Below are positions 11,585 to 25,450 of a stretch of DNA of 34,296 bases, piece by piece. Below the pieces are notes generated by a model. It had not been told where the DNA came from. It saw only the letters and a program-made list of their open reading frames with translations, and did not search any database. Within the stretch, counting starts at the first letter, position 1, and the number at the start of each line of letters is the position of its first letter. Origin of the DNA: Reclinomonas americana ATCC 50394 (lineage: Eukaryota); the NCBI GenBank assembly GCA_048213135.1, contig PS015370.1:16686-50981 (forward strand), read 5' to 3'. Made by a program: the position numbers and the translations under genes.

Positions 11585-11750
11585 CTCCCCTGACGCCACA
11601 ACTGAAGACACAAGCACACGAGAGACACAAAGAGACAGGACTTTTTTTACTAATCGGAGCCTCGTCGTCACCTGGCACCACTCTCCAACCGCGACGATAC
11701 AAAGCCTGCACAACCACAAGCAACATGTCAGTCAGCTACTTTCCCCTGCT

Positions 11751-13011
11751 CTATTTGCTCATGTGCTTGTGGAGCGCACCTGTGAGCTCGGCCACTTGTC
11801 GACGTTCCTCTTCTATCTTGACGCGCAGCTTGGCCTGTCGTCGCTCCTCCCGTGCCTTTTTGCGTGCCCGCTCCTCTCGTTCTCGACTGCGTGAGGTGCG
11901 GCAGTGAGCAACGAAGGCGAGGGCATAAATGGAACTGCGAGCGCAGACGACGCAACAGCTGCGCGATAACGACACGAGCTTGTTTCAGCTTTTTCGCGGC
12001 GGGCTTGATCTGCTCCGGTTGTGCCATGTACTGAATGCGCTCGGCGCCCTCGGCAAGCACACGATCGACCTCGTCGAGACGCGCCTCGTGCTCGTCGACA
12101 CGCGCGCCCACCAATTGTCGCAGCGTGACGCCCGACGCGGAGGCAGCCAGTGCCGCCCGCAGTGCCGCCAACGCAATAAGCATGGGATGGAAGAGGAACT
12201 GAGCGTCGGTGGCCAGCGACGTGCGCACTGCGGTCTTGGCACGCTCCCAGGTGCTGGCCGATACGCGCTGCGCCACATCCTTGCACCGAATCCCATCCAG
12301 GAAGCGATACGGATGATGAAAGTGCAAGTGGAAGAGCGTGCCGGCGGCCACAGTCAGCTCCATGGCCAGCACATCATCCATGGAGATACGCTCGTCGGAG
12401 ATCTCCGACATGCGCTGCACCAGATCGCGCACCGTGACCGCATACAGCTCCTCGGCCTTGCAGGCCAGATACAGACAGGCGACAGTGACTAGCACGGGGT
12501 CGTGCTCGGCCACCGAGTTGCGAATGTAGAATCGCTTGAAGAGAGACATGGCTGAGGCCTCGACGACCAGTGGCAGGTGCAAGCGCACGGCCAAGTCGGG
12601 CATCTTGGCCAGGAAGTGATGCTGCAGCACCAGCTCTTCGTCCACAGTCAACCAGTTGCGCTGGAGGGTGGTTAGCGCGCTCTTGCGCTTCTTCTCGCCA
12701 CCAGAGGACTGTGGGAGGGGAGGAGAGGAGGAGAAGAGTGAGGACAAGTCAAATGCCAGTGTGCGTGATCATCATCTCCTGTCACACACCTCCGCTGCGG
12801 CCGCTGCCTCCTCATCCTCCGCCCGCGCCAGCTCCACCAGGCGCGTCTTGACGGCCTCCAGTGCCTCCTCTCGCCACAGCCTCAACGCGTCCACGTCACT
12901 CACCATCCAGTGACGCGCCTGACTGCTGTCGTCGAAGAAGGCATCACCTCCTCCTCCTTGTCCTCCTCCTCCTCCAGATGCCACACCACTGCTGCTGCCG
13001 CCTTCACTCAT
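11751..13011 (-). CDS. CCNH: Cyclin H-like cyclin (CAK/TFIIH CDK7 partner), 3 exons
   Basis: N-terminal FDDSSQARHW resembles the cyclin H 'SSQxRxW' motif. Cyclin box LTVDEE...ASAMSLFKRFYIRNSVAEHDPVLVTVACLYLACKAEE, then FHLHFHHPYRFLDG and TDAQFLFHPMLIALAAL. Intron 11956-11887 joins a charged C-terminus ending HKHMSK-stop. Confidence 0.85.
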
Positions 13012-14016: not shown

Positions 14017-16548
14017 AAGTCTCTCGTTGTCTCCCTTGCTCTCGTGCTTCATCCCTTCTCGATAGACAAGTCTCTCTCTCTCACACTCTCTCTCCCTCTT
14101 CTCCTCACTCTTCTCTGACTGTCTCTCTCTCTCGCTCACACACGCTGACCCCCCTCTCAGCTGCAAGAGACAAAAGGCATGTGCGAGTATGCTCTGTATG
14201 TCAAAGGTCTGTGCCTATGTTCCTCCCTTCCCTCACTGGTCAGCTGTGTGTAACCTTCATTCTCTCCACCACTCGTCAGCTCTGATCAGCAGGCAGCGTG
14301 GCTCGATTCAAGAGTCTCTGGAGCTTTTCCGCTCCGCCACCATTCTCAACCCGCACAATGTCAGCAACTTGAAACAAGTCGCTCGATCACTGTTGCGCGC
14401 TCTGCTTTGGTTCATGTGCTTTGCTGGCAAGTGGCTTACGTGCGTGTGTGTGTGTGTGCGCAGTCATCTGCTGGGCAGGCACAAGAACGCGATTGATGTG
14501 TACGACGAGGCGCAACGCTTGGTCGAGGAGGATTGGGTGAGTTGTCCAGGAAGAGGGAGAAAGAGAGAGCCATGCGTCTCTGCTTCCTGACCCCCTTCCC
14601 TTCTCCCAGGAAATCTGGCACAACAAGGGCGTGTGCCACATGTACTTGAAGAACTTTGACCAGGCCATCGACGCCTTCCAGTGCGCCAACGCCATTGCGC
14701 GACACGATGCCACCTTTATGCAGCTGGCCAAGGTCTACACAATGCAAGACGACATTCCGGCGGCCATTGAGACGCTGGAGGAGGCACTCGAGTTCTCGCC
14801 CGAGAACCCCGAGATTCTCACCACGCTCGGCATTCTGCACTTGCAAGTTGGCGAGAATCAAAAGGCGTTTGACAACCTAGGCGCGGCTCTCACGCAGGAT
14901 CCGAAGAACCCCAAGGTACACGAGACTCTCTCATTTTCAATATGACCGCTGCTCACCGCGCTCTGCCAGACCATTCTCGCCGCCGGCTCGATCATCCAAG
15001 ACCACAACGAAATGGATGTGGCGCTGAGCAAGTACCGTGTGGCCGCCAAGGAGACACCAAACTCGGCGCAGCTGTGGAACAACATTGGCATGTGCTTCTT
15101 TGGCAAGCAGAATTATGTAGCAGTTGAGGCGATGGGAGGGAAGGGGATGGGAGAAAGATGGGCTGGCGCTCACTGCAGTGTTGGTATCGCAGGCTATTTC
15201 ATGTCTGAAGAGGGCGCTGTATCTGGCGCCGTTCGAGTGGATCATTGCGTACAATCTCGGGTTGGTGCACTTGAATACGGGCCAGTTGCGTTGCTGGGTT
15301 TTTGTGATGCAGTCATTTGCGTGTATTGTTGTTTTGTGCTTTGTCATGCTTGTGGAGCGGTCTCTCTCTCTCTCTCTCTCTCCTCNNNNNNNNNNNNNNN
15401 NNNNNNNNNNNNNNNNNNNNNNNNNNNNNNNNNNNNNNNNNNNNNNNNNNNNNNNNNNNNNNNNNNNNNNNNNNNNNNNNNNNNNNNNNNNNNNNNNNNN
15501 NNNNNNNNNNNNNNNNNNNNNNNNNNNNNNNNNNNNNNNNNNNNNNNNNNNNNNNNNNNNNNNNNNNNNNNNNNNNNNNNNNNNNNNNNNNNNNNNNNNN
15601 NNNNNNNNNNNNNNNNNNNNNNNNNNNNNNNNNNNNNNNNNNNNNNNNNNNNNNNNNNNNNNNNNNNNNNNNNNNNNNNNNNNNNNNNNNNNNNNNNNNN
15701 NNNNNNNNNNNNNNNNNNNNNNNNNNNNNNNNNNNNNNNNNNNNNNNNNNNNNNNNNNNNNNNNNNNNNNNNNNNNNNNNNCTCTCTCTCTCTCTCTCTC
15801 TCCTCCCCATCTCGTGACGCAGTGTGTTGTTCTTGTGCTCTGTCGCTGTTGTGGTGCAGTTTCTCTCTTTCTTTTCTCCCGTCGTGTGACTCTGTGTGTT
15901 GTTCTTGTGCTCTGTGGTTGTTGTGACCAGTCGCTTGGGTGTCCGTCTTGTGACCCAGTGTGTTGTTTTTATACTTTGTGGTTCTTCATTTGCTTTCTAC
16001 TCTATGGTTTTTGTGACTTGTTTTGTGTACACTCCTCCCCCATTTATGTATCCGTCTCCATCCTGCTTGCCTTTTCTCCTCTTCTCCCTTTCCATTTGCT
16101 TCCTCTCGCATTCCCCTCCCCTCTCCCTCTCCCTCACCCTTCCCTCACCCTCCCCAGATTCGCCTCGGCCTTCCACTACTTCTCCGCCTCCATCAACCTG
16201 AAGCGCGACTTTGCCAGCGCCTACATGTACCTGGCCATCACTCTGTCGCGGCTGGACGACTTTGAGAATGCCTGCCACGCCTACGAGAAGGCGATTGAGA
16301 TGGAGAGGTGTGCTGCAATCTCCGTTTCCGACCACGCTGCCATGGTCTCACTCTTCCCCCCTATTGGTAGCGACCATTTGTTTGAGCTCAACTACGCCGT
16401 CACGTTGTACAACCACGGCGACTCGAGGAATGCACGCAAGCACTTCCAGCAGTTCCAGCGCCTGTTCGAGGACCTGGATGAGGCAGCCAAGCAGGAGGAT
16501 CCCGACGTGCTCACCATCTCCAAGCGTCTCAGCGATTTGTTGAAGTGA
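13695..16548 (+). CDS. BBS4: Bardet-Biedl syndrome 4 protein (BBSome TPR subunit), 9 exons, with the assembly gap inside intron 7
   Basis: Spliced peptide has BBS4-like segments [108 protein letters not shown] and [13 protein letters not shown]. All 8 introns are GT-AG and keep the frame. Confidence 0.95.
13981..14012 (+). repeat. (CT)n microsatellite in BBS4 intron 1
   Basis: Direct tctc... run within an AG/CT-rich expanded intron (13881-14160). Confidence 0.9.
15386..15781. other. Assembly gap (N run) flanked on both sides by (CT)n, inside a BBS4 intron
   Basis: 396 N. CT repeats at 15361-15385 and 15782-15802. Confidence 0.98.
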
Positions 16549-16928
16549 GGTCGCCGCGTGTGTGTGTGTGCGCGCGCGCGTTTCAGATTGAAATTATGGT
16601 GGTGTATACGCGATATCCGGCTGCATGTACAAGTGCAGACAACAGCGGTGTTCACGTCCAGGCTTTGGTGTCGTATTGGCCACGAATGACAGGATCAATC
16701 ATTGCAAAAAATGCGTCACCGTCGCTCTTTTCACGTATGTTTTTCACCACCGTCACTCTCGTTCTCAAGCACCACGTAGTCTCATTGCGCAAGTCGCGAT
16801 CGCCCGGCCACGTGCCTCGTAGTTGTGTTGTCAGGCCTTCTTGTCAGCCGGAAATGCACAGTCAACCTGTCATCCTCGCACCGATCTTTTTTCCACGCCG
16901 TTTTTCTTGTCTTGTGTGAGAGAGAAGC

Positions 16929-19630
16929 ATGTCATCCAACAAGAAGGGTGTACCCAAGGCTGCTGCCGCAGCCAATGCTGTCGGTGTGTCCCTCTCAGCG
17001 ACCTCTTCACACCCCATTCTCTCTCTCTCCCTCACACATTCTCCTCCTCTCAGAAACCGAGAACACTCGCCGTCTGGAGCAAGCACGAGCCGCCTTCCAA
17101 CACGCACAGGCGGCAGTGAGCCAGGCCCAGCTGGGCGACGCACAAGTGATCCTCAGTCAGTGCGTGGACGAGTTCACAGCGCTGCTTGGACGCCAACACG
17201 GCGACACCATGCAAGCCATGTACACGTTGTCGATGGTGCTCACCAACGTCGGCCGCATGGACGAAGCGCTGGCACTCCTCCAGGAGCTCGTCGAACTCGC
17301 CGAGCGCATGTTTGGCTCGGAGCACGTGAACGTCTCCGCTGCGAAGCTGGAGTACGAGAAGGTGGGCCGCGCCATGGCGCAGCGCGAGGCCGAATCGCTG
17401 CGCGCACAGGTCGCACAGATGCGGGAGGAGCTCCGACTCAAGGAGCTGTTGCTGGACGGCTCAGAGCGCATTCCCGACCCGTTGGCAGTCCCGCTTGGTG
17501 CGTTTCCACGAGTTTTGTCGTGTTTCTCATTTTGTCCTGTCATCCACCTCACACTCACTGTTCGGTGGTGCCAACCTGCAGTGGACACGGATGAGCTGCG
17601 TGAACATCGCCGGATCATCTCGCAGAGTGTGCACGAGCTGCTGCCGTCGACGATTCTGGCCGAGCGCGGCGATCCGGATGCCGGATCGCAACTCGAGCAA
17701 TCGGCCGTGTTTGCCGACATTCCCGACGCAGTCCGCGTCGCCAGCCGCGGCCTGAGCGAGTTCCGCGATCCGTCGGGCACGCCTCCGCCCGCTCCCGACG
17801 CTCCCTACCACAAGGTAGTGCGCGCTCATGCCAACACACTGATTCGCATCGTGGAGGACCTGCCGAGCGATGCGCAGGATCGTGTGCGACAGATTGGCAT
17901 GCAGACGCCGGTCACGCAGCATGCCGTCAGCGCTGTGGTCAGCCTCCGGGATCAGGTCAGCAAGGTGTTCAAGGAGGTTGCTGATGCAGCGCAGGTCGTG
18001 TATGGTGTGTCGGTGACGGAGGAGGCGGCCGCTGTGGCGCGTCGTGAGGCCGAGGACGGCAATGATCGCGACACTCACGATCGCGACCTGCGCCAAGTCA
18101 AGGCCATTAGCCGTGCAAGCGATCGCCTCGACAGCTCGGTGCACGCCTGCAATCAGACGCAGTCGCTGGTGGACGAGAGAAGACGCGGACAGAGCGAGAC
18201 GGAGCGCGAACTGCTCTGGAACGACCTTTCTGTCAAGTGCGACGAAACGCTGGCCAAGCTGCGCGGCATGATTGACGAGATGCCGCGCAAGCTGGCTCGT
18301 GCGCAGCAGGAGACCAACTACACCAAGCAGGGCATTCTGCATGAGCGTCAAGAGCTTCTCAACCGCCTGCGCGTCAACGTGGTGCGCCTCGATGAGTGCG
18401 AGCGCGTGGAGCGACGGCTTGCCCGCGAGCGTCAGCAGCTGGACGAGATTCTTGCGCGACTGATCAGGCGCGCCGACGCGGTGGAGATGGTGCAGACTGA
18501 AGTGGTGCGATGGGCGCCGGCGCATCTGCGCAAGATGCGAGAGGCGGCGGCGAAGGAGCTTCGGGCGTGGCAGAACAGTGCCCGCGAGGCTGAGAGCTTT
18601 GCCACCCGACGGGAATTCGGTCTGCAGCGCGGCAGGGAGGAGCTGGAGCTGCAAGTCAAGCGATATGTGCGGTTCACGGAGGTTGCCGACCGCACTGCCG
18701 CCGACAACAACAAGTGGCGTGTGTTGAGGTTGCCCAGCAAAGTGGACCAGCAGCGCGAGGAGGAGGAGCGCAGTCAGGCGTTCGCCGCGGCCGCCGAGGC
18801 CAGCAAGCTGCTCGAGCTGTGCACACGATTCTCGCTCAAGTGGGAGGACTGCTCGGAGGCCGACGCTCGCCTGCACTACCGCCGTGTGATGCTGGACGCT
18901 GCGGTCGACGCCTGCAAGGGGCACCCGCCACCGGCCGTTCTCGCGGATTGTTGCGTCCCCACCCCCATTAATATTCATCGTGCAAGAAGCACCGACACTG
19001 ACCTGCTGTCACACATACACAGTGGGGCTGTCTGATCTGCAAGACGACGTGGCGCTGTCGATCCAGTCGCTGGACTCGCTCCGACTGCACGCGTCGCCGC
19101 AGCCGATGAACGTTCGACCCAACGCCGCACAGGCACGCTTCCAGTTGCACGAGACCCTCAATTCCGTCCTGGGCAAGGAGCATGCGCCGGTGACGGTGCG
19201 CTTCTCGCCACAGCAGAACACACTGACTCTGGAGTTTGAGGTGCCGGTGCTGTCGACCAGCGCCCGCGATTCGCCCACCTCCATGGAGGCCCGAGCTGCG
19301 GCGACCACGGCGCGTGCAGTCAAGGCCGTGCAGCGCGGACTGCGCGCCGAGCTTGCCGATCGCCTGCCCCCGGTGGAGCCCGTCATTGAGCGACGCGACC
19401 ACGCCATTGTGGCCATCATCGCCGAACTCGGCTCGGCGGACGCACTGGTGGCGCTGGCGCTCCGCCGCGACCACTTGTCGCAGGCCATTAGCCAGGCACA
19501 GCGACGATTCGCCGACGAGGATATCAGCAGCTTGCTGACCAAGACCTCGGCCACGGCTGCCGCAGGAGCAGCCGACGACTGGGCCGCGAGCAGCCACTCC
19601 ACTGTCGTGTCGTCCGTGGGCCGACTCTGA
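16929..19630 (+). CDS. Uncharacterised protein with N-terminal TPR-like helices (kinesin-light-chain/TPR_12 style) and long coiled coils, 4 exons
   Basis: ATG at 16929 (MSSNKKGVPK). Introns at ~16983-17053, ~17498-17581 and 18950-19022 keep the frame. 'LLGRQHGDTMQAMYTLSMVLTNVGRMDEALALLQELVELAERMFGSEHVNV' is TPR_10/12-like. E/R/Q/L-rich heptads follow downstream. Confidence 0.75.
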
Positions 19631-19843: not shown

Positions 19844-20809
19844 ATGAAGTTCGGTGTGCAGCTGAGCCTGCACTCGCTGACGAAATGGCGCAACAACTAT
19901 GTGCGATACAAGCGACTGAAGGACAAGATCCACGCGGTGGTCGCAGCTCACATTGCCACCGGGTCTGACTCTCTCTTTGTCTCCCCTTCCCTCACACACA
20001 CACACAACGCTCACTTTGCGCTCATCAGTGTGGCCATTGACTTGCTGCCTGAGGAAAAGTCGTTTGAGGAGAGCCTGCACTCGGATCTTCGGTTCGCATC
20101 ACACTTGTCTGTGTGCGCTCTCTCTGTCGTGCTCACACTGTGCACGTAGGGCGGTGAACAACTTTGTGGCGCTGCAAAAGGCGGCACTGGAGAGCGATCT
20201 GTTTGCGTTTGAGCAACGTTTGCGCGTGTCGTTGGCGAATGGATCGTCGGATCGCCATCGACGCCCCGAAGACGAGGAAGAAGAGGAGCGTGAGATTACA
20301 CTGGAGGAGGTGTCGCGACTGCGTGCGCTGTGTGTGGACTTTGTGCAGCTGCGACACTTTGTGCAGCTCAACGCCGAAGGCTTTCGAAAGGTGCTGAAGA
20401 AGCATCGGAAGCACACGCAGTATGCGCTCGATCCGCGACTCGATCCCGCCACGGCCTATCGACAGCCGTTTGCCGATCCCGAGTCTCTGGCGTGGTTTGG
20501 TTCGCTCACTTGCTGTGCACTGTCATACCCTCCCCTCCCCTAGAAAACCTACCTCGTGGCTGATCCCTCGGTTCGCAGCTCGTCGACTGCAGCACATTCG
20601 CTCGCTCTTCCAGCAACGTGTCAGCGACGCTGTGAGCGAGACCGAGCTGTTCAAGCAACTGATGGAGATCACGTTGGAGGTGCCGCCGGTGGTGCGTCGG
20701 CAGCGATCGATCTGGCGTCGATACTCGTTTCGCGGCTCGTTGGTCCCGCTGGCGCTGTGCCTGTATCAAAAGGTGAGCATTACGGGAGAGCTCAACTCGC
20801 ACTGTCTCT

Positions 20810-20855
<46 letters not shown>

Positions 20856-23800
20856 CAGTTCACGGAGACATTCGTCAAGGCAATCACACTGGCGACGGTG
20901 GTCTCCTTTGCCTGGAAGACGGAGACTCAGGGCAACGCGGAGGCACTGCTGATGCCGCCGGGCGGCATCTCGCGATTCGCCTTTATCGGCTGCCTGTTTG
21001 GCCTGGTGTCGTTGTTCCGCGCCGCTGCACTGGTGTTTGCGGCGTACTTTGCTCACGATGCGCGACTCGTCGGTTGGATCTGGGGCACGGTGCGGGCGCT
21101 CAGCTTGTGGGCTCTCGCACAACTGTCGGTGTGTGCACTCTGTGTCTCGGTGGCTGTGTGTCTGCACCCCCTCGTTGAGTTGTGCGCCCGCGCAGCAATC
21201 TCCTTGGCTGTGGAAATTGGTCTTCCTCCTGCTCCTCCTCGAACCCTTTGCCGGTGTGATGACCTGCGCGGCCGCGTCGCGCTTGTTGTGGGGCTCACGT
21301 CGCTTGTGGAAAGGTGTATTCTCCCCGCTCCGCTGTCATTTCTTTGTTCCCCTGTCTCCCTCTCACGCGTTTCATGCAGCCGACGTGAGCCGACTGTACG
21401 AGCGCATGGCCATGATTGATGCCAACGGCGCCACCGGCAACGGCAAGAGCGATGAGACACCCATTTCGCGTGGCACCTACAGCCTGTTGTCGTTCGCCAT
21501 GTCGGTGTTGGGCGTGCTTGGCGCCTTTGTGATTGCGCGCTACGGTTTCGGCATGTACGCGTGCTTGCTGGTGGCGGCGGCGTTGGCGTTTGTGGAGGTG
21601 CCGCTGTTCTCGCTCTCGTCGCGCCCCAGCCGGGATCTGCGCTCGCCCGACCCGATTGTCACCTACCACATGTCGCCGGCGTCGCTTCTCTCGCAACACC
21701 ACACGATGCGATGGACGATGATTGTGCTGCTGGCCTCGTCGCCGGCGTACCAGGCCTCACCAACCGCCGTCCTACTGGTGTGTGCCGGCCTCTCGCTGGC
21801 CGTGCGAATCGGCGAGTTCGTCGGCAAACTCTTGTCGTATTCCACGGGCGCACGGTTCGGCACATGCGCGTGGTGTCCGCCTCCTCTTTTTCGCTTGGAC
21901 TCACGACGGTGCCTCTCACAGCTTCTCACTGAGTCGCGTGTCGCTGTATGCCACCTCGAGCTTTGCGCTCTTCGCCTTGCTGCCGTTTGTCTCCGAGTAC
22001 GCCGACATGATGCGTGCTCCATGGTGGATGCTACAATTCCAGTTGCGCCTTCCCGTTGCCGACGTCCATGTCGTCCACTCTCGCTCTCTCTCATCGTGGC
22101 TGTGTGCGCAGACTGCCGGCGCCACTGTTTGGCGATGTACGACTCCTTCTCAGCTTTGTTATTCTGCTGACATTTAGCGTGTTCAACTACCTCGCCCGCA
22201 CCACCTCGGCAGCGCTGCGGCACAGCGCCGAGTCTCACGCCCCGTCCACACTCGGTGGCCCATTGGATACGCGGCTGTGGCTGTTCAAAGTCGTCAAGAG
22301 CTTCTTCTCAGTGCTCGCCGGCGTGTTTGTGGAGGTGACACACTCGCTCACTTTTGCTTGTCGATCACTCACACACTCACTAACCTTGCGTGCTCGACAG
22401 AGACCATTCACCAACGTTCTCAATCTGTCGTTCATGTCGCTGGCGCTTGGTATCGTCACGTCGGTGCTCGGTGTGGTCGAGGCGTGGTCTGCACCGAAAA
22501 TCACCAACGCCTCGGCCGACGCGGAGATGGCAGAGCTGGGTTTCGAACGGCGCGGTCGTTTCATTGTGGTCGAGGGGCTTGATGGTGCGTTTTTTCCCTC
22601 TTCATATACCCCCAACTGTGTGTGGATGAATTCCTCACCACTGCACACTGATGCGAGCAGGATCGGGCAAGTCGACGCAGTTGGCCATGCTGGAGACCAA
22701 ACTGCGACTGGCGGGTTTCGATGTGGTGACCACCGGGTGGAACTCGTCGTCGATGATGGCCGAGTCCATCAAGGCTTCGAAGCGTCTGCGTCACATGCGG
22801 CGTCGCACGTTTGCGCTCAGTCAGGCCACCGACTTGTCGGAGCAGTTGTACGACGTGGTGCTGCCGGCGCTGAGGTTCGTTCCCCTGCTGCTGCTGCTGC
22901 ATGCTGTTGCACGGACCACTTTGTGTGTACTCACGCGTGGCTGCTTGCAGTGCTGGCAAGATTGTTCTCTCCGACCGCTACTTTTACACGAGCCTGGCGC
23001 GCGACACCGTGCGCGGCAGCGACCGCGTGTGGCTGGAGAATTTGTACGCCAACATGATTCAGCCGGATCTCGTCATGTACTTCCGCATCCCGGTGGAGAC
23101 CGCCATCTCTCGCGTGGTCAAGCGGCGCATGGCCAGCAGTGCGCACGCGGTCGGCGAGTCCGACGACGACGAGGACGACTTGTCGGACGACGACCTGCGG
23201 GGATCACTGACCGACAGCCTACCGGTCGAATATCTCGAGTCGCGTCCACGCTCGCGACAGCCCCCGTTTGTCAGCAAGGTTCTCCCCTCTCCCCTCTCCA
23301 CGGCCACCAGCGCAGTCGCACCGTCTCCCTCTCGCCGCTCACTGCCACCGACGGGCGTGGTGGAGGACGGCGAGGGCGAAGATGTCGATGTGCGGCGCCG
23401 CTCGCACTCATCGGCACTGGGTGTGGTCACCAGCAGTGGCAGCGACAGCCACAGCAGCAGTGGACTCGGCCATGGTCTGGCGCACGCGGCTGACGACAAG
23501 GACGACGGCGAGCCGCAGTTGTCGTTCTACGAGGCTGGTCTCGATCTCCATCTCGAGGATGATCCGCTAAAGGTACGAGGAACCACAGCTCTGTGTGCGC
23601 GGCGTTGCGCTCACTGTGTGTGGTGTTGCGCGCACAGAATTTTATCTCGTTCCAGACGCTGGTGTCGGACCAGTATGACATTCTGGCTGATGGTGCGTGT
23701 GTTTGTATTGCTGTGCTTGTTGTGCTGACGCATTGCCACCAACCATTGTTCTTCTCTGCACCGTTTTGCAGCGTACGATTTCAAAGTGTTTGACGCCACG

Positions 23801-24961
23801 CAGGCCATGGAGTTGCAGCACGAGATCGTGATGCATCATGTCAACAGGATCCTCGTGCATGGTCCGCCCGTGCGCACCAACGTGCGAAACGCCTTCGACA
23901 AGAACCCCGAAGACGATCCGCCGAAGATGCGCTCGAACTATCTGCGCGGGCACGCCTGGAGCGGTCTTCATTTCTACTTTCGCAACATGCACCAGGTGAG
24001 CGCTGCGAGCGTGAGTGACTGTTCTTCCCGAGCCGTCCATCTAAGCCACGCCAACAGACCATGCTGGAGCGCACGGAGGAACTGATGGATCTCGGCCCGA
24101 TGCCTCGCGTGTTCTTGCACGGAAATCCACACATTGACAACTTTGCCAAGGTTATTTCTCGAGGTCGATACTGTTCCGCAGGGAATGCCCTAACCCCGCT
24201 CACGTGTGCAGGGCGTGGCCGGCTCTGCATTGTTGGACTTTGATCGCTCCAAGTTCGGTCCATACGCCTGGGATCTGCTGCGCCTGATGGTGTCGCTCTC
24301 CATCCGCTCGAAGAGCGCTTCAACGCACCTGTTGCACTGGTCGCTCGTGCGTGCCGTGCAGGAGGGCTACTTTTGGGGCTTCCTACATCCCGATATGCCT
24401 CTCCGCGACATGCAAAAGTTGTCGGTTTGTGTGCTGCACGATCGCCTCTTTGCCGCGTTTCTCCATGCTAATTTCGCGCATAGGTGGCTCGCCCGTTGCC
24501 CGAGGAGGAGACGACGAATGCGTACCTTGCCGCCAATCGTGGCTGGGCCATGGAGATGCGTGAGAATCAGCTGCCGGTGGACGACGAGAATGTGCAGACC
24601 CTGGTGCGCTTGTACGCCGAGTCGCGTGGCGAACCGAGACTGCTTTCCGAGTTTCGTCATCTGTTGCTCCTCTCCTCCAACCAGCGAGCTCAACGTCGGG
24701 TTGCACGAAACACCCCTTCTCATACGCAGCTACCGCATCGAAGAAGCCGGTCGTGGTTTCGGGTCCATGGCCGTTCGCGATCGATACTTGGTGGTGTTGG
24801 CGCCCACCGCCGCCGCCGCTTCCTCGGATCGCCTGTTCCTCGACATCAAGGAGACTCGACGCGACCCCGACACGCGCTACTTTACCAATCCGTTCGACCA
24901 CAATGGCAAGCGAATGATCGCAGCTGGCAAGCTGTACGCTCCGAGCTGGGTTGAACGGGAG

Positions 24962-25035
<74 letters not shown>

Positions 25036-25450
25036 ATGAGGTGCAATTCGTGTATTCACGACTCATCGTGCAGGGGTTTGCCACGCTGGGCGGTGTCGAG
25101 TATCACATTCGACAGATACCGCCACAGACAATCAAGCTGAAAGGACTGTTGAACCTGGCCGACGCGCGTGACTTTGCGTACACGGCGTCCACTCAGCTCG
25201 GTCGAGGTCATCGCCTCTCGCTGCAGCCAGCCTGGTCGCCGCGTGATTTGCTGGCCCACCTGGAAGAGTTGCGACAGTGTTGCTCTTCTTGTCCTCAGGT
25301 GCGCTTGCACCCTCAACCGATCTCTCTCCGTGCAGCAATCTGCCGACCATCATCGATGTGGCTAATCAGTTGCGACAAGAAATCACTGGAGCGTACTGGC
25401 GCTACCGCGCGAAGTGCGACGTTGCCGAACGTAACTTTAACAACAAATAA
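19844..25450 (+). CDS. Multidomain protein: SPX - multi-pass membrane domain - thymidylate-kinase-fold P-loop kinase - DUF2252-like protein-kinase-like domain (~20 exons, ~1,400 aa)
   Basis: SPX: MKFG..W...YVRYKRLK, DLRAVNNFV, LRHFVQLNAEGFRKVLKKHRK. Many hydrophobic helices at ~20720-22490. TMK fold: GRFIVVEGLDGSGKSTQ (split by intron 22585-22660), IVLSDRYFYTSLARD, QPDLVMYFRIPVE, FYEAGLDL. DUF2252-like: LRGHAWSGLHFYF, HGNPHIDNFAK, DFD.SKFGPYAWDLLRLMVSL, GFGSMAVRDRYLV, FLDIKE. 19 GT-AG introns give a stop-free frame to TAA at 25448-25450. Confidence 0.8.
20814..20852 (+). repeat. (CT)n microsatellite forming an intron polypyrimidine tract
   Basis: Direct CT run just before the 3' splice AG at 20857-20858. 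Confidence 0.9.
24966..25035 (+). repeat. Compound (GT)n(GA)n microsatellite in an intron of the SPX fusion gene
   Basis: About 25 GT units followed by about 10 GA units directly after donor GTGAGT at 24962. Confidence 0.92.

Follow-up and report, generated by a model that had tools for sequence, protein, structure and literature searches.

In a stretch of 34,296 nucleotides from Reclinomonas americana ATCC 50394 (contig PS015370.1, positions 16,686 to 50,981 of the forward strand; hereafter the window) we found a gene on the + strand (19844..25450) whose predicted product of 1422 residues carries, from the N to the C terminus, an SPX domain, a polytopic membrane region, a domain with the fold of the thymidylate kinases (TMK) and a DUF2252 domain. 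Sequence comparisons support the assignment of the TMK-fold domain to the PPK3 family of polyphosphate kinases, and not to the genuine thymidylate kinases. We propose, with a probability of roughly 0.6, that it is a cPPK3-like kinase domain working between ATP or ADP and polyphosphate (polyP), with no action on dTMP, within a eukaryotic SPX-membrane-DUF2252 polypeptide. This proposal combines what was read from the DNA, namely family membership, catalytic-type residues, domain order and introns, with an enzyme activity taken from the literature on the archaeal enzyme.

Polyphosphate occurs in all eukaryotes, and the only well-established eukaryotic polyP synthases are, to our knowledge, the VTC complex and the bacterial-type PPK1 of Dictyostelium. 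The PPK3 family itself is already known; its SPX-bearing eukaryotic version is the candidate novelty here. Within the literature in reach, to which most subscription journals did not belong, we found nothing combining SPX with the PPK3 family or with DUF2252, and the accessible parts of the literature on DUF2252 yielded nothing on an SPX-TMK-DUF2252 architecture.

The gene and its kinase-fold domain

The gene model was predicted from the reading frames and GT-AG splice sites of the window DNA and comprises 19 exons and 18 introns, each of the latter being GT..AG. With phmmer it matched P0002, an orthologue of 1401 residues encoded by an intron-free record of 4452 nt, at 1023 bits in four collinear blocks (79% identity over exon 10), and Pfam found PF03105, PF02223 (88.6 bits) and PF10009 (45.2 bits) in this orthologue. 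When exon 11 was compared with proteins of similar length, the sole match was an orthologous exon from another record (P0001); against longer proteins no match was obtained.

The family is otherwise prokaryotic and the scaffold contains an assembly gap (15386-15781), which is what one might invoke for bacterial contamination or a misassembly in a eukaryotic scaffold. We nevertheless hold this explanation to be extremely improbable: the gene combines 18 GT-AG introns with an in-frame SPX fusion, its neighbours on the stretch (a cyclin and TPR proteins) are eukaryotic, other records, including one labelled Ancoracysta twista, contain SPX-bearing orthologues, and P0001 has the same two ends as exon 11 of the window.

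The TMK-fold domain is complete (22549-23850) and is spread over five exons, from the end of exon 9 to the start of exon 13. In its reading frame, the 3' end of exon 9 (22549..22584) encodes strand 1 and the first half of the P-loop, RGRFIVVEGLDG. It is followed by intron 9 (22585..22660; 76 nt, GTGCGT..CAG, phase 1), which interrupts a P-loop glycine codon and so cuts the loop between GLDG and SGKST; orthologue P0002 encodes GLDGSGKST uninterrupted. Exon 10 (22661..22874) continues with SGKST (Lys717), WNSS (22738-22749), a basic loop and the F.L..ATD motif; the peptides TTGWNSSSMM, IKASK and RRTFALSQATDLSEQLYDVVLPAL all lie within it, and it is 43-44% identical to the prokaryotic PPK3-type proteins P0003-P0013. 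Exon 11 (22951..23572) encodes the DRY motif (22973-22981; Asp793-Arg794-Tyr795), the lid arginines Arg839 and Arg844, and YEAG.D (Tyr978 at 23528), and holds both SAGKIVLSDRYFYTSLARDTVRG.DRVWLENLY and FYEAGLDL..DDPLK. According to the alignment, its lid carries an insertion, acidic and rich in Ser and Pro, of about 125 residues (approximately residues 846-972, 23132..23512) that is found in none of the prokaryotic c-type proteins and is present, poorly conserved, in P0001 and P0002. The gene model and the alignment place the NF..FQ helix, with the c-type-conserved F997 and Q998, in exon 12 (23638..23692), and exon 13 (23772..23995) supplies the last strand and helix of the kinase (to about 23850) before the DUF2252 region begins. 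Matches to PF02223 were obtained with exons 10 and 11. The peptides quoted in an initial annotation of this DNA, as well as the intron said to split the P-loop, were all recovered here on the + strand once the GT-AG introns were removed.

Relationship to PPK3 and to canonical thymidylate kinases

In S. acidocaldarius, two genes annotated as thymidylate kinases and adjoining ppx encode the heteromeric polyphosphate kinase PPK3 (Höfmann et al., J Biol Chem 2026; PMC12995831). Its catalytic subunit cPPK3 (Saci_2019) forms polyP from ATP and is inactive as a dTMP kinase; Saci_2020 serves as the regulatory subunit rPPK3, and the heteromer shows an approximately 50-fold preference for polyP-dependent ADP phosphorylation (PMC12995831). 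PPK3 entered the literature in 2024-2026 as an archaeal and bacterial family; according to the same source its dTMP-binding residues are unconserved, and it forms a clade separate from the canonical dTMP kinases, eukaryotic ones included. The passages of that paper on eukaryotes assign their dTMP kinases only to the canonical clade and list none under PPK3, and its main text mentions neither SPX nor a DUF (PMC12995831). The initial annotation had pointed to a prokaryotic TMK-like subfamily to which the domain would belong; this subfamily is real and is the published PPK3 family.

The best relative of the domain in the PDB was, by a wide margin, ST1543 of S. tokodaii (2plr, 4nzy, 4rzx, 5h70); 5h70 (ST1543/STK_15430) is given as a homologue of cPPK3 Saci_2019 (PMC12995831). 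Exon 10 had two matches at E<=10, of which 2plr was the only TMK entry (E 1.2e-5, 28.6 bits, with WNSS and ATD aligned). Exon 11 matched 2plr at 49 bits (E 5.7e-12) and canonical TMKs at no more than 17.7 bits. For P0002 the values were 118 bits with 2plr, about 50 with bacterial TMKs, 43 with the Plasmodium TMPK, 39 with the human enzyme and 25 with that of yeast. A profile of prokaryotic c-type proteins scored 180.5 + 45.6 bits (226) on the spliced domain, the match breaking into two pieces around the lid insertion, compared with 37-59 bits on five canonical Tmks. An AlphaFold model was made for the relative P0026 (kinase plus DUF2252) and not for the window protein; it was built on a 12-row alignment and had a mean predicted local distance difference test score of 72.8, with a confident kinase domain and low confidence at residues 239-331. 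Foldseek searches of the PDB with this model returned TMK chains throughout; the top eight were ST1543 chains, at 35-38% identity and E about 1e-15, and canonical TMKs came next (E about 1e-10).

Canonical kinases bind dTMP through a motif known as REP in bacteria and FP in human. In the corresponding columns the five canonical Tmks mostly have R-E-P (P in 5/5), the window has G-W-N and catalytic PPK3 has E-W-N, so that the absence of a REP or FP motif noted in the initial annotation is confirmed. The cPPK3 proteins (Saci_2019; ST1543) have in common with the window domain the dTMP-kinase fold, a P-loop GxDGSGKS with its Lys, WNSS instead of REP, and the ATD, DRY and YEAG.D motifs at equal spacing. 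The window domain differs from them in being part of a eukaryotic SPX/DUF2252 membrane protein encoded with spliceosomal introns, and in its lid insertion, its replaced basic positions, the lack of an r partner in the gene or window and its branching outside the operonic c/r clade (see below). Canonical dTMP kinases (Tmk, CDC8, DTYMK) have PF02223 in common with the domain; the dTMP-binding motif is theirs only, and they form a separate clade of low similarity. PPK2 enzymes are likewise polyP-using P-loop kinases with an analogous reaction; in sequence, PPK2 models gave trace matches only (E about 0.01-0.09), in prokaryotic relatives.

A genuine dTMP or nucleoside monophosphate (NMP) kinase of the CDC8/DTYMK kind would account for the PF02223 match and for the match to TIGR00041, the dTMP-kinase equivalog model, whose cut-off of 83.25 bits P0002 passes with 95.9 bits (single exons of the window: 18.5 and 31.3 bits). 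However, of five PPK3-type proteins from prokaryotes that were scanned (81.7-117.5 bits), four pass that cut-off too, and this model therefore fails to separate dTMP kinases from the PPK3 type. With WNS in place of R-E-P or FP, with the low scores against the human, yeast and Plasmodium enzymes, with a characterised PPK3 member devoid of dTMP-kinase activity (PMC12995831), and with a separate, much higher-scoring canonical Tmk in 5/5 checked prokaryote genomes that have the PPK3 type, we consider a dTMP kinase very unlikely. The statement of the initial annotation that the domain is not of the CDC8/DTYMK kind thus agrees with the PDB scores, the profile, the trees described below and the published tree (PMC12995831); as regards the eukaryotic dTMP kinases, the separation rests on the PDB scores and the published tree. 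Annotation pipelines will label the domain "dTMP kinase", probably wrongly.

The domain resembles the catalytic subunit

We then looked at which of the two PPK3 subunits the domain resembles, using an alignment of 31 sequences each of the first (c) and second (r) gene of the pairs, the five canonical Tmks and the fused proteins. Seventeen columns were specific for the c type (at least 85% conserved in c, the same residue occurring in no more than 20% of r). The window has the c state in 11 of them and the r consensus in two; the canonical Tmks match in one to three. The window keeps the P-loop Lys, which is Arg in 94% of the r-type sequences, and WNS where the r type mostly has L/T/R. The DRY Arg and both lid Arg are kept in all four SPX-type sequences, and likewise in the MFS-type relatives described below except for the second lid Arg. 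Among the 11 positions at which at least 85% of the 31 c sequences have Lys or Arg, seven are kept in the window and four are replaced. The c-specific columns, together with the P-loop Lys, WNS and the DRY and lid arginines, support a catalytic-type (cPPK3-like) domain.

As a side observation, all 31 bacterial and archaeal r-type open reading frames (ORFs) keep the DRX Arg. The rPPK3s are described as having this arginine replaced (PMC12995831), and since the r types here retain it and mostly lose the P-loop Lys, the inactivating change may differ between lineages.

Gene neighbourhood of the prokaryotic relatives

A HMMER search of the whole library with 65 residues from the start of exon 11 returned 585 proteins at E<=1e-3. 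We also scanned one genome per prokaryotic species, with 16 aligned single-domain relatives as the query. Relatives are encoded by at least 502 stretches, and the 80 loci kept come from many bacterial phyla, Nitrososphaeria and other archaea. Two TMK-like ORFs lie on the same strand in 76 of these 80 loci, directly one after the other in 74 and with the second about 2.5 kb upstream in two; in the other four a contig ends at or near the match. That the genes often occur in pairs, as had been claimed, is therefore well founded. PPK3-type c/r pairs were also seen in 51 of 301 genomes of one bacterial phylum, one of which (G157) is unpublished (50/300 otherwise). The abstract of the PPK3 paper speaks of "few bacteria" (PMC12995831), and the pairs look far more widespread than that.

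PPK3 operons are described as carrying PPX, CHAD, SixA, NUDIX and Pst genes (PMC12995831). Pfam analysis of 150 neighbour ORFs, from 15 loci and a portion of one more, found Ppx-GppA in six loci, CHAD in four, and a PhoU-Pst cluster with a SixA-type phosphatase in one. For all 80 loci, neighbours were counted with our own profiles, seeded on ORFs checked with Pfam (150 of the 396 neighbour ORFs); the counts are lower bounds, because many loci end at contig ends, and our NUDIX and PstS profiles, with one seed each, were too weak to count. PPX was nearby in 48/80 loci, a SixA-like protein in 28/80, CHAD in 25/80 and PhoU in 8/80. DUF2252 was found in 0/80 genome loci and 2/80 metagenome loci. 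The neighbourhood predicted in the initial annotation is thus recovered for PPX, CHAD and PhoU, but DUF2252 is no usual neighbour. In the two metagenome loci (L167:4531-9766 and L106:8551-9870), cPPK3, rPPK3 and a full-length canonical DUF2252 gene (395 bits) stand in a row, and in L167, the one checked for this, the c/r pair is flanked on its opposite side by PPX and CHAD. An unfused DUF2252 gene directly after a c/r pair links DUF2252 to polyP loci outside the fusions.

The SPX, membrane and DUF2252 regions

The predicted SPX domain is encoded by exons 1-4 (19844..20772, + strand; 19844-19962, 20029-20091, 20150-20499 and 20579-20772). PF03105 matched exon 1 at 26.7 bits (profile positions 1-32) and exon 3 at 21.4 bits (305-331), both as single exons and below the cut-off of 27.8 bits; among the SPX-bearing relatives it scored 26.3 bits in P0002, 41.6 in P0015 and 61.8 in P0021. 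SPX and a TMK-like domain stand on one polypeptide in the window protein, P0002, P0015 and P0021. Exons 5-9 (20859..22548, + strand; approximately residues 243-700) encode the polytopic membrane region, in which a hydropathy scan gave 12 peaks, some of them overlapping. In the orthologue P0002 this region matched no Pfam family, and hhalign gave a probability of 0.7% for the window region against the MFS part of the relatives, so that homology to MFS is unsupported; local phmmer matches to P0024 and P0157 extend about 100-125 residues upstream of the kinase domain. The DUF2252 domain, protein-kinase-like with permuted lobes, occupies exons 14-19 (24058..25450, + strand; stop codon at 25448-25450). 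PF10009 scored 20.8 bits on exon 15 alone, and its score in P0002 is above the cut-off of 22.3 bits.

Fused relatives and origin of the module

Six relatives of 1030-1276 residues (P0018, P0024, P0025, P0029, P0049 and P0157) combine MFS_1 (PF07690), TMK and DUF2252. They are collinear with the window protein in both halves, the kinase half matching at about 150 bits and the DUF2252 half at 370-400 bits (P0018, P0024, P0025). They differ from it in that a Sec-like signal peptide followed by a Pro/Ala-rich linker takes the place of SPX at the N terminus, in having a PF07690 membrane part and in having no long lid insertion. SPX, TMK and DUF2252 are found together in P0015 (labelled Ancoracysta twista, EukProt), and SPX with TMK in P0021. 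Other relatives have tandem TMK-like domains (P0014, source label Alicyclobacillaceae) or are fused to Ppx-GppA domain III (P0016, P0027, P0048 and P0038). Genes for the MFS-TMK-DUF2252 fusion were absent from the 301 genomes of one phylum, where the 51 positive genomes had c/r-type matches only; a metagenome scan found c/r pairs and the two loci with unfused DUF2252 only, and a plasmid scan found matches of TMK length only (10 records).

Two quick maximum-likelihood trees were built (106 and 51 rows), with support from the SH-like approximate likelihood ratio test (SH-aLRT) only. The SPX-type sequences, four in number, group together (SH-aLRT 89 and 93), with the MFS-type fusions as their nearest neighbours, and in the larger tree all 14 fused proteins form one group (96). 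The operonic c and r subunits are a separate group (97 and 95). The longest internal branch (94 and 100) sets the canonical Tmks apart from the PPK3-type sequences, the window domain among them. The rooting is unreliable because the outgroup branches are long.

The initial annotation had seen in the domain a horizontally acquired, polyP-linked kinase recruited under SPX control. Horizontal transfer, in either direction, is plausible, but the nearest relatives are the MFS-TMK-DUF2252 fusions and not the operonic pairs; the acquired unit was therefore probably kinase plus DUF2252. The kinase-DUF2252 module probably arrived en bloc, SPX being gained in eukaryotes. In the simplest reading, the module, perhaps with a membrane part, passed between bacteria and an ancestor of these eukaryotes, SPX took the place of the signal peptide, and introns entered later.

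These fusions also suggest a function unrelated to polyP, in which the TMK-like and DUF2252 domains would be tandem small-molecule kinases whose substrate is some solute that the membrane region handles; an APH-like DUF2252, for instance, would phosphorylate a hydroxyl and the NMP-kinase-like domain would add a second phosphate. The fusion partner of the nearest relatives is indeed an MFS transporter (PF07690; P0018, P0024, P0049, P0157 and others), DUF2252 is placed in the protein-kinase-like clan beside APH (PMC9758233) and has weak APH matches, the fused lineage lies outside the c/r clade, and four of the 11 c-type basic positions are lost in the window. We regard such a pair of solute kinases as rather unlikely, given that 11 of the 17 c-specific columns are kept, that two metagenome loci have a DUF2252 gene immediately after the c/r pair, PPX and CHAD adjoining in L167, and that SPX is known from phosphate and polyP proteins.

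Several further arrangements were noted among the relatives. The four proteins with Ppx/GppA domain III (HD-like) each have two TMK-like domains and are devoid of the Ppx-GppA catalytic domain. Among a further set of proteins (P0036, P0044, P0081 and P0138; P0126, P0127 and P0161; P0144), some PPK3-like domains are fused to an inorganic pyrophosphatase (PF18823), one such fusion having 2575 residues and an ART-PolyVal domain, while others have NUDIX as their partner; inteins interrupt two. The ESM Atlas contains Actinomycetota MFS+TMK clusters (scores 0.80-0.88), which are leads only.

Proposed function of the window protein

By analogy with the archaeal enzyme we infer a polyP activity for the window protein, and the fusion itself suggests that the kinase is under SPX control. 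SPX is the inositol-pyrophosphate sensor of eukaryotic phosphate homeostasis. In the mechanism that we propose, ATP or ADP would be bound at the intact P-loop (Lys717), Asp793-Arg794 of the DRY motif together with the lid residues Arg839 and Arg844 would clamp the donor and acceptor phosphates, and the basic loop after WNSS would help to hold the polyphosphate. The SPX domain would tie kinase activity to the cellular phosphate status, the membrane region would set the reaction at a membrane, and DUF2252 could possibly be a stand-in for the missing r subunit.

Several observations weigh against this proposal. The four c-type basic positions that are replaced are Arg775 (Gln), Arg814 (Glu), Lys976 (Ser) and Arg1031 (Met), and some of them may be residues of the polyP cleft. 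An r-type or second TMK-like sequence is absent from the gene and from the whole window, and the archaeal enzyme needs its r subunit for full activity (PMC12995831). The lid is enlarged by about 125 residues, and P0002 passes the dTMP-kinase equivalog cut-off. Finally, the trees place the fused lineage apart from the operonic c and r subunits, and its substrate could therefore differ.

The want of an r-type partner in the gene or window, the large lid insertion and the replacement of several conserved basic residues would also suit a P-loop domain that regulates a transporter by binding or hydrolysing ATP, with no phosphotransfer to polyP or nucleotides. We judge this improbable, because conservation of the phosphate-clamping arginines, with the DRY Arg and both lid Arg in the four SPX types and all but the second lid Arg in the MFS types, would be unexpected of a mere nucleotide sensor.

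The cPPK3-like polyP kinase which we favour can be compared with known SPX proteins. VTC (Vtc4: SPX, TTM polymerase and membrane domain) is similar in outline, with a sensor, a polyP-forming domain and a membrane part. The folds are unrelated, however, a triphosphate tunnel in VTC and a P-loop kinase in the window protein, which is no VTC member. The plant PHT5/VPT1 SPX-MFS vacuolar phosphate transporters (PMC12388464) resemble the window protein in having SPX at the N terminus and a polytopic membrane region after it; this class has no kinase domains, and the membrane region of the window lacks MFS support (hhalign 0.7%). As a tentative extension, on which we would place less weight, the gene might encode a second, VTC-independent type of eukaryotic polyP enzyme: an SPX-gated, membrane-embedded PPK3 that would make polyP from ATP, or regenerate ATP from it, at the plasma membrane or that of an organelle, with DUF2252 replacing the r subunit, the module coming from a bacterial transporter fusion and the sensor being added in eukaryotes.

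If the cPPK3-like assignment is true, it would extend PPK3 to eukaryotes. The presence of PPK3 and SPX on one polypeptide would give a testable candidate link from inositol-pyrophosphate sensing to polyP/ATP, and the fusion suggests that DUF2252, a kinase-like family that is widespread but uncharacterised, is polyP-related.

Neighbouring genes and minor features

Upstream of the gene, the window contains a cyclin gene on the - strand (11728-12768; Cyclin_N 44.5 bits, Cyclin_C_2) and, on the + strand, the exons of a TPR protein (14900-16500) and a large TPR protein (16780-19035). The former TPR protein may resemble BBS4, a cilium-related protein. The assembly gap at 15386-15781 consists of N with (CT)n runs on both flanks, and the apparent low G+C of 15001-16000 is due to it. 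Two exon junctions of the gene model are ambiguous, both of them outside the kinase domain: that of exons 5 and 6 (21316-21379; donor GTATTC versus an alternative acceptor at 21389) and that of exons 18 and 19 (25268-25335; donor at 25268 or 25277). A (CT)n run occupies much of intron 4 (20773-20858), and intron 17 (24962-25073) is mostly a (GT)n(GA)n microsatellite.

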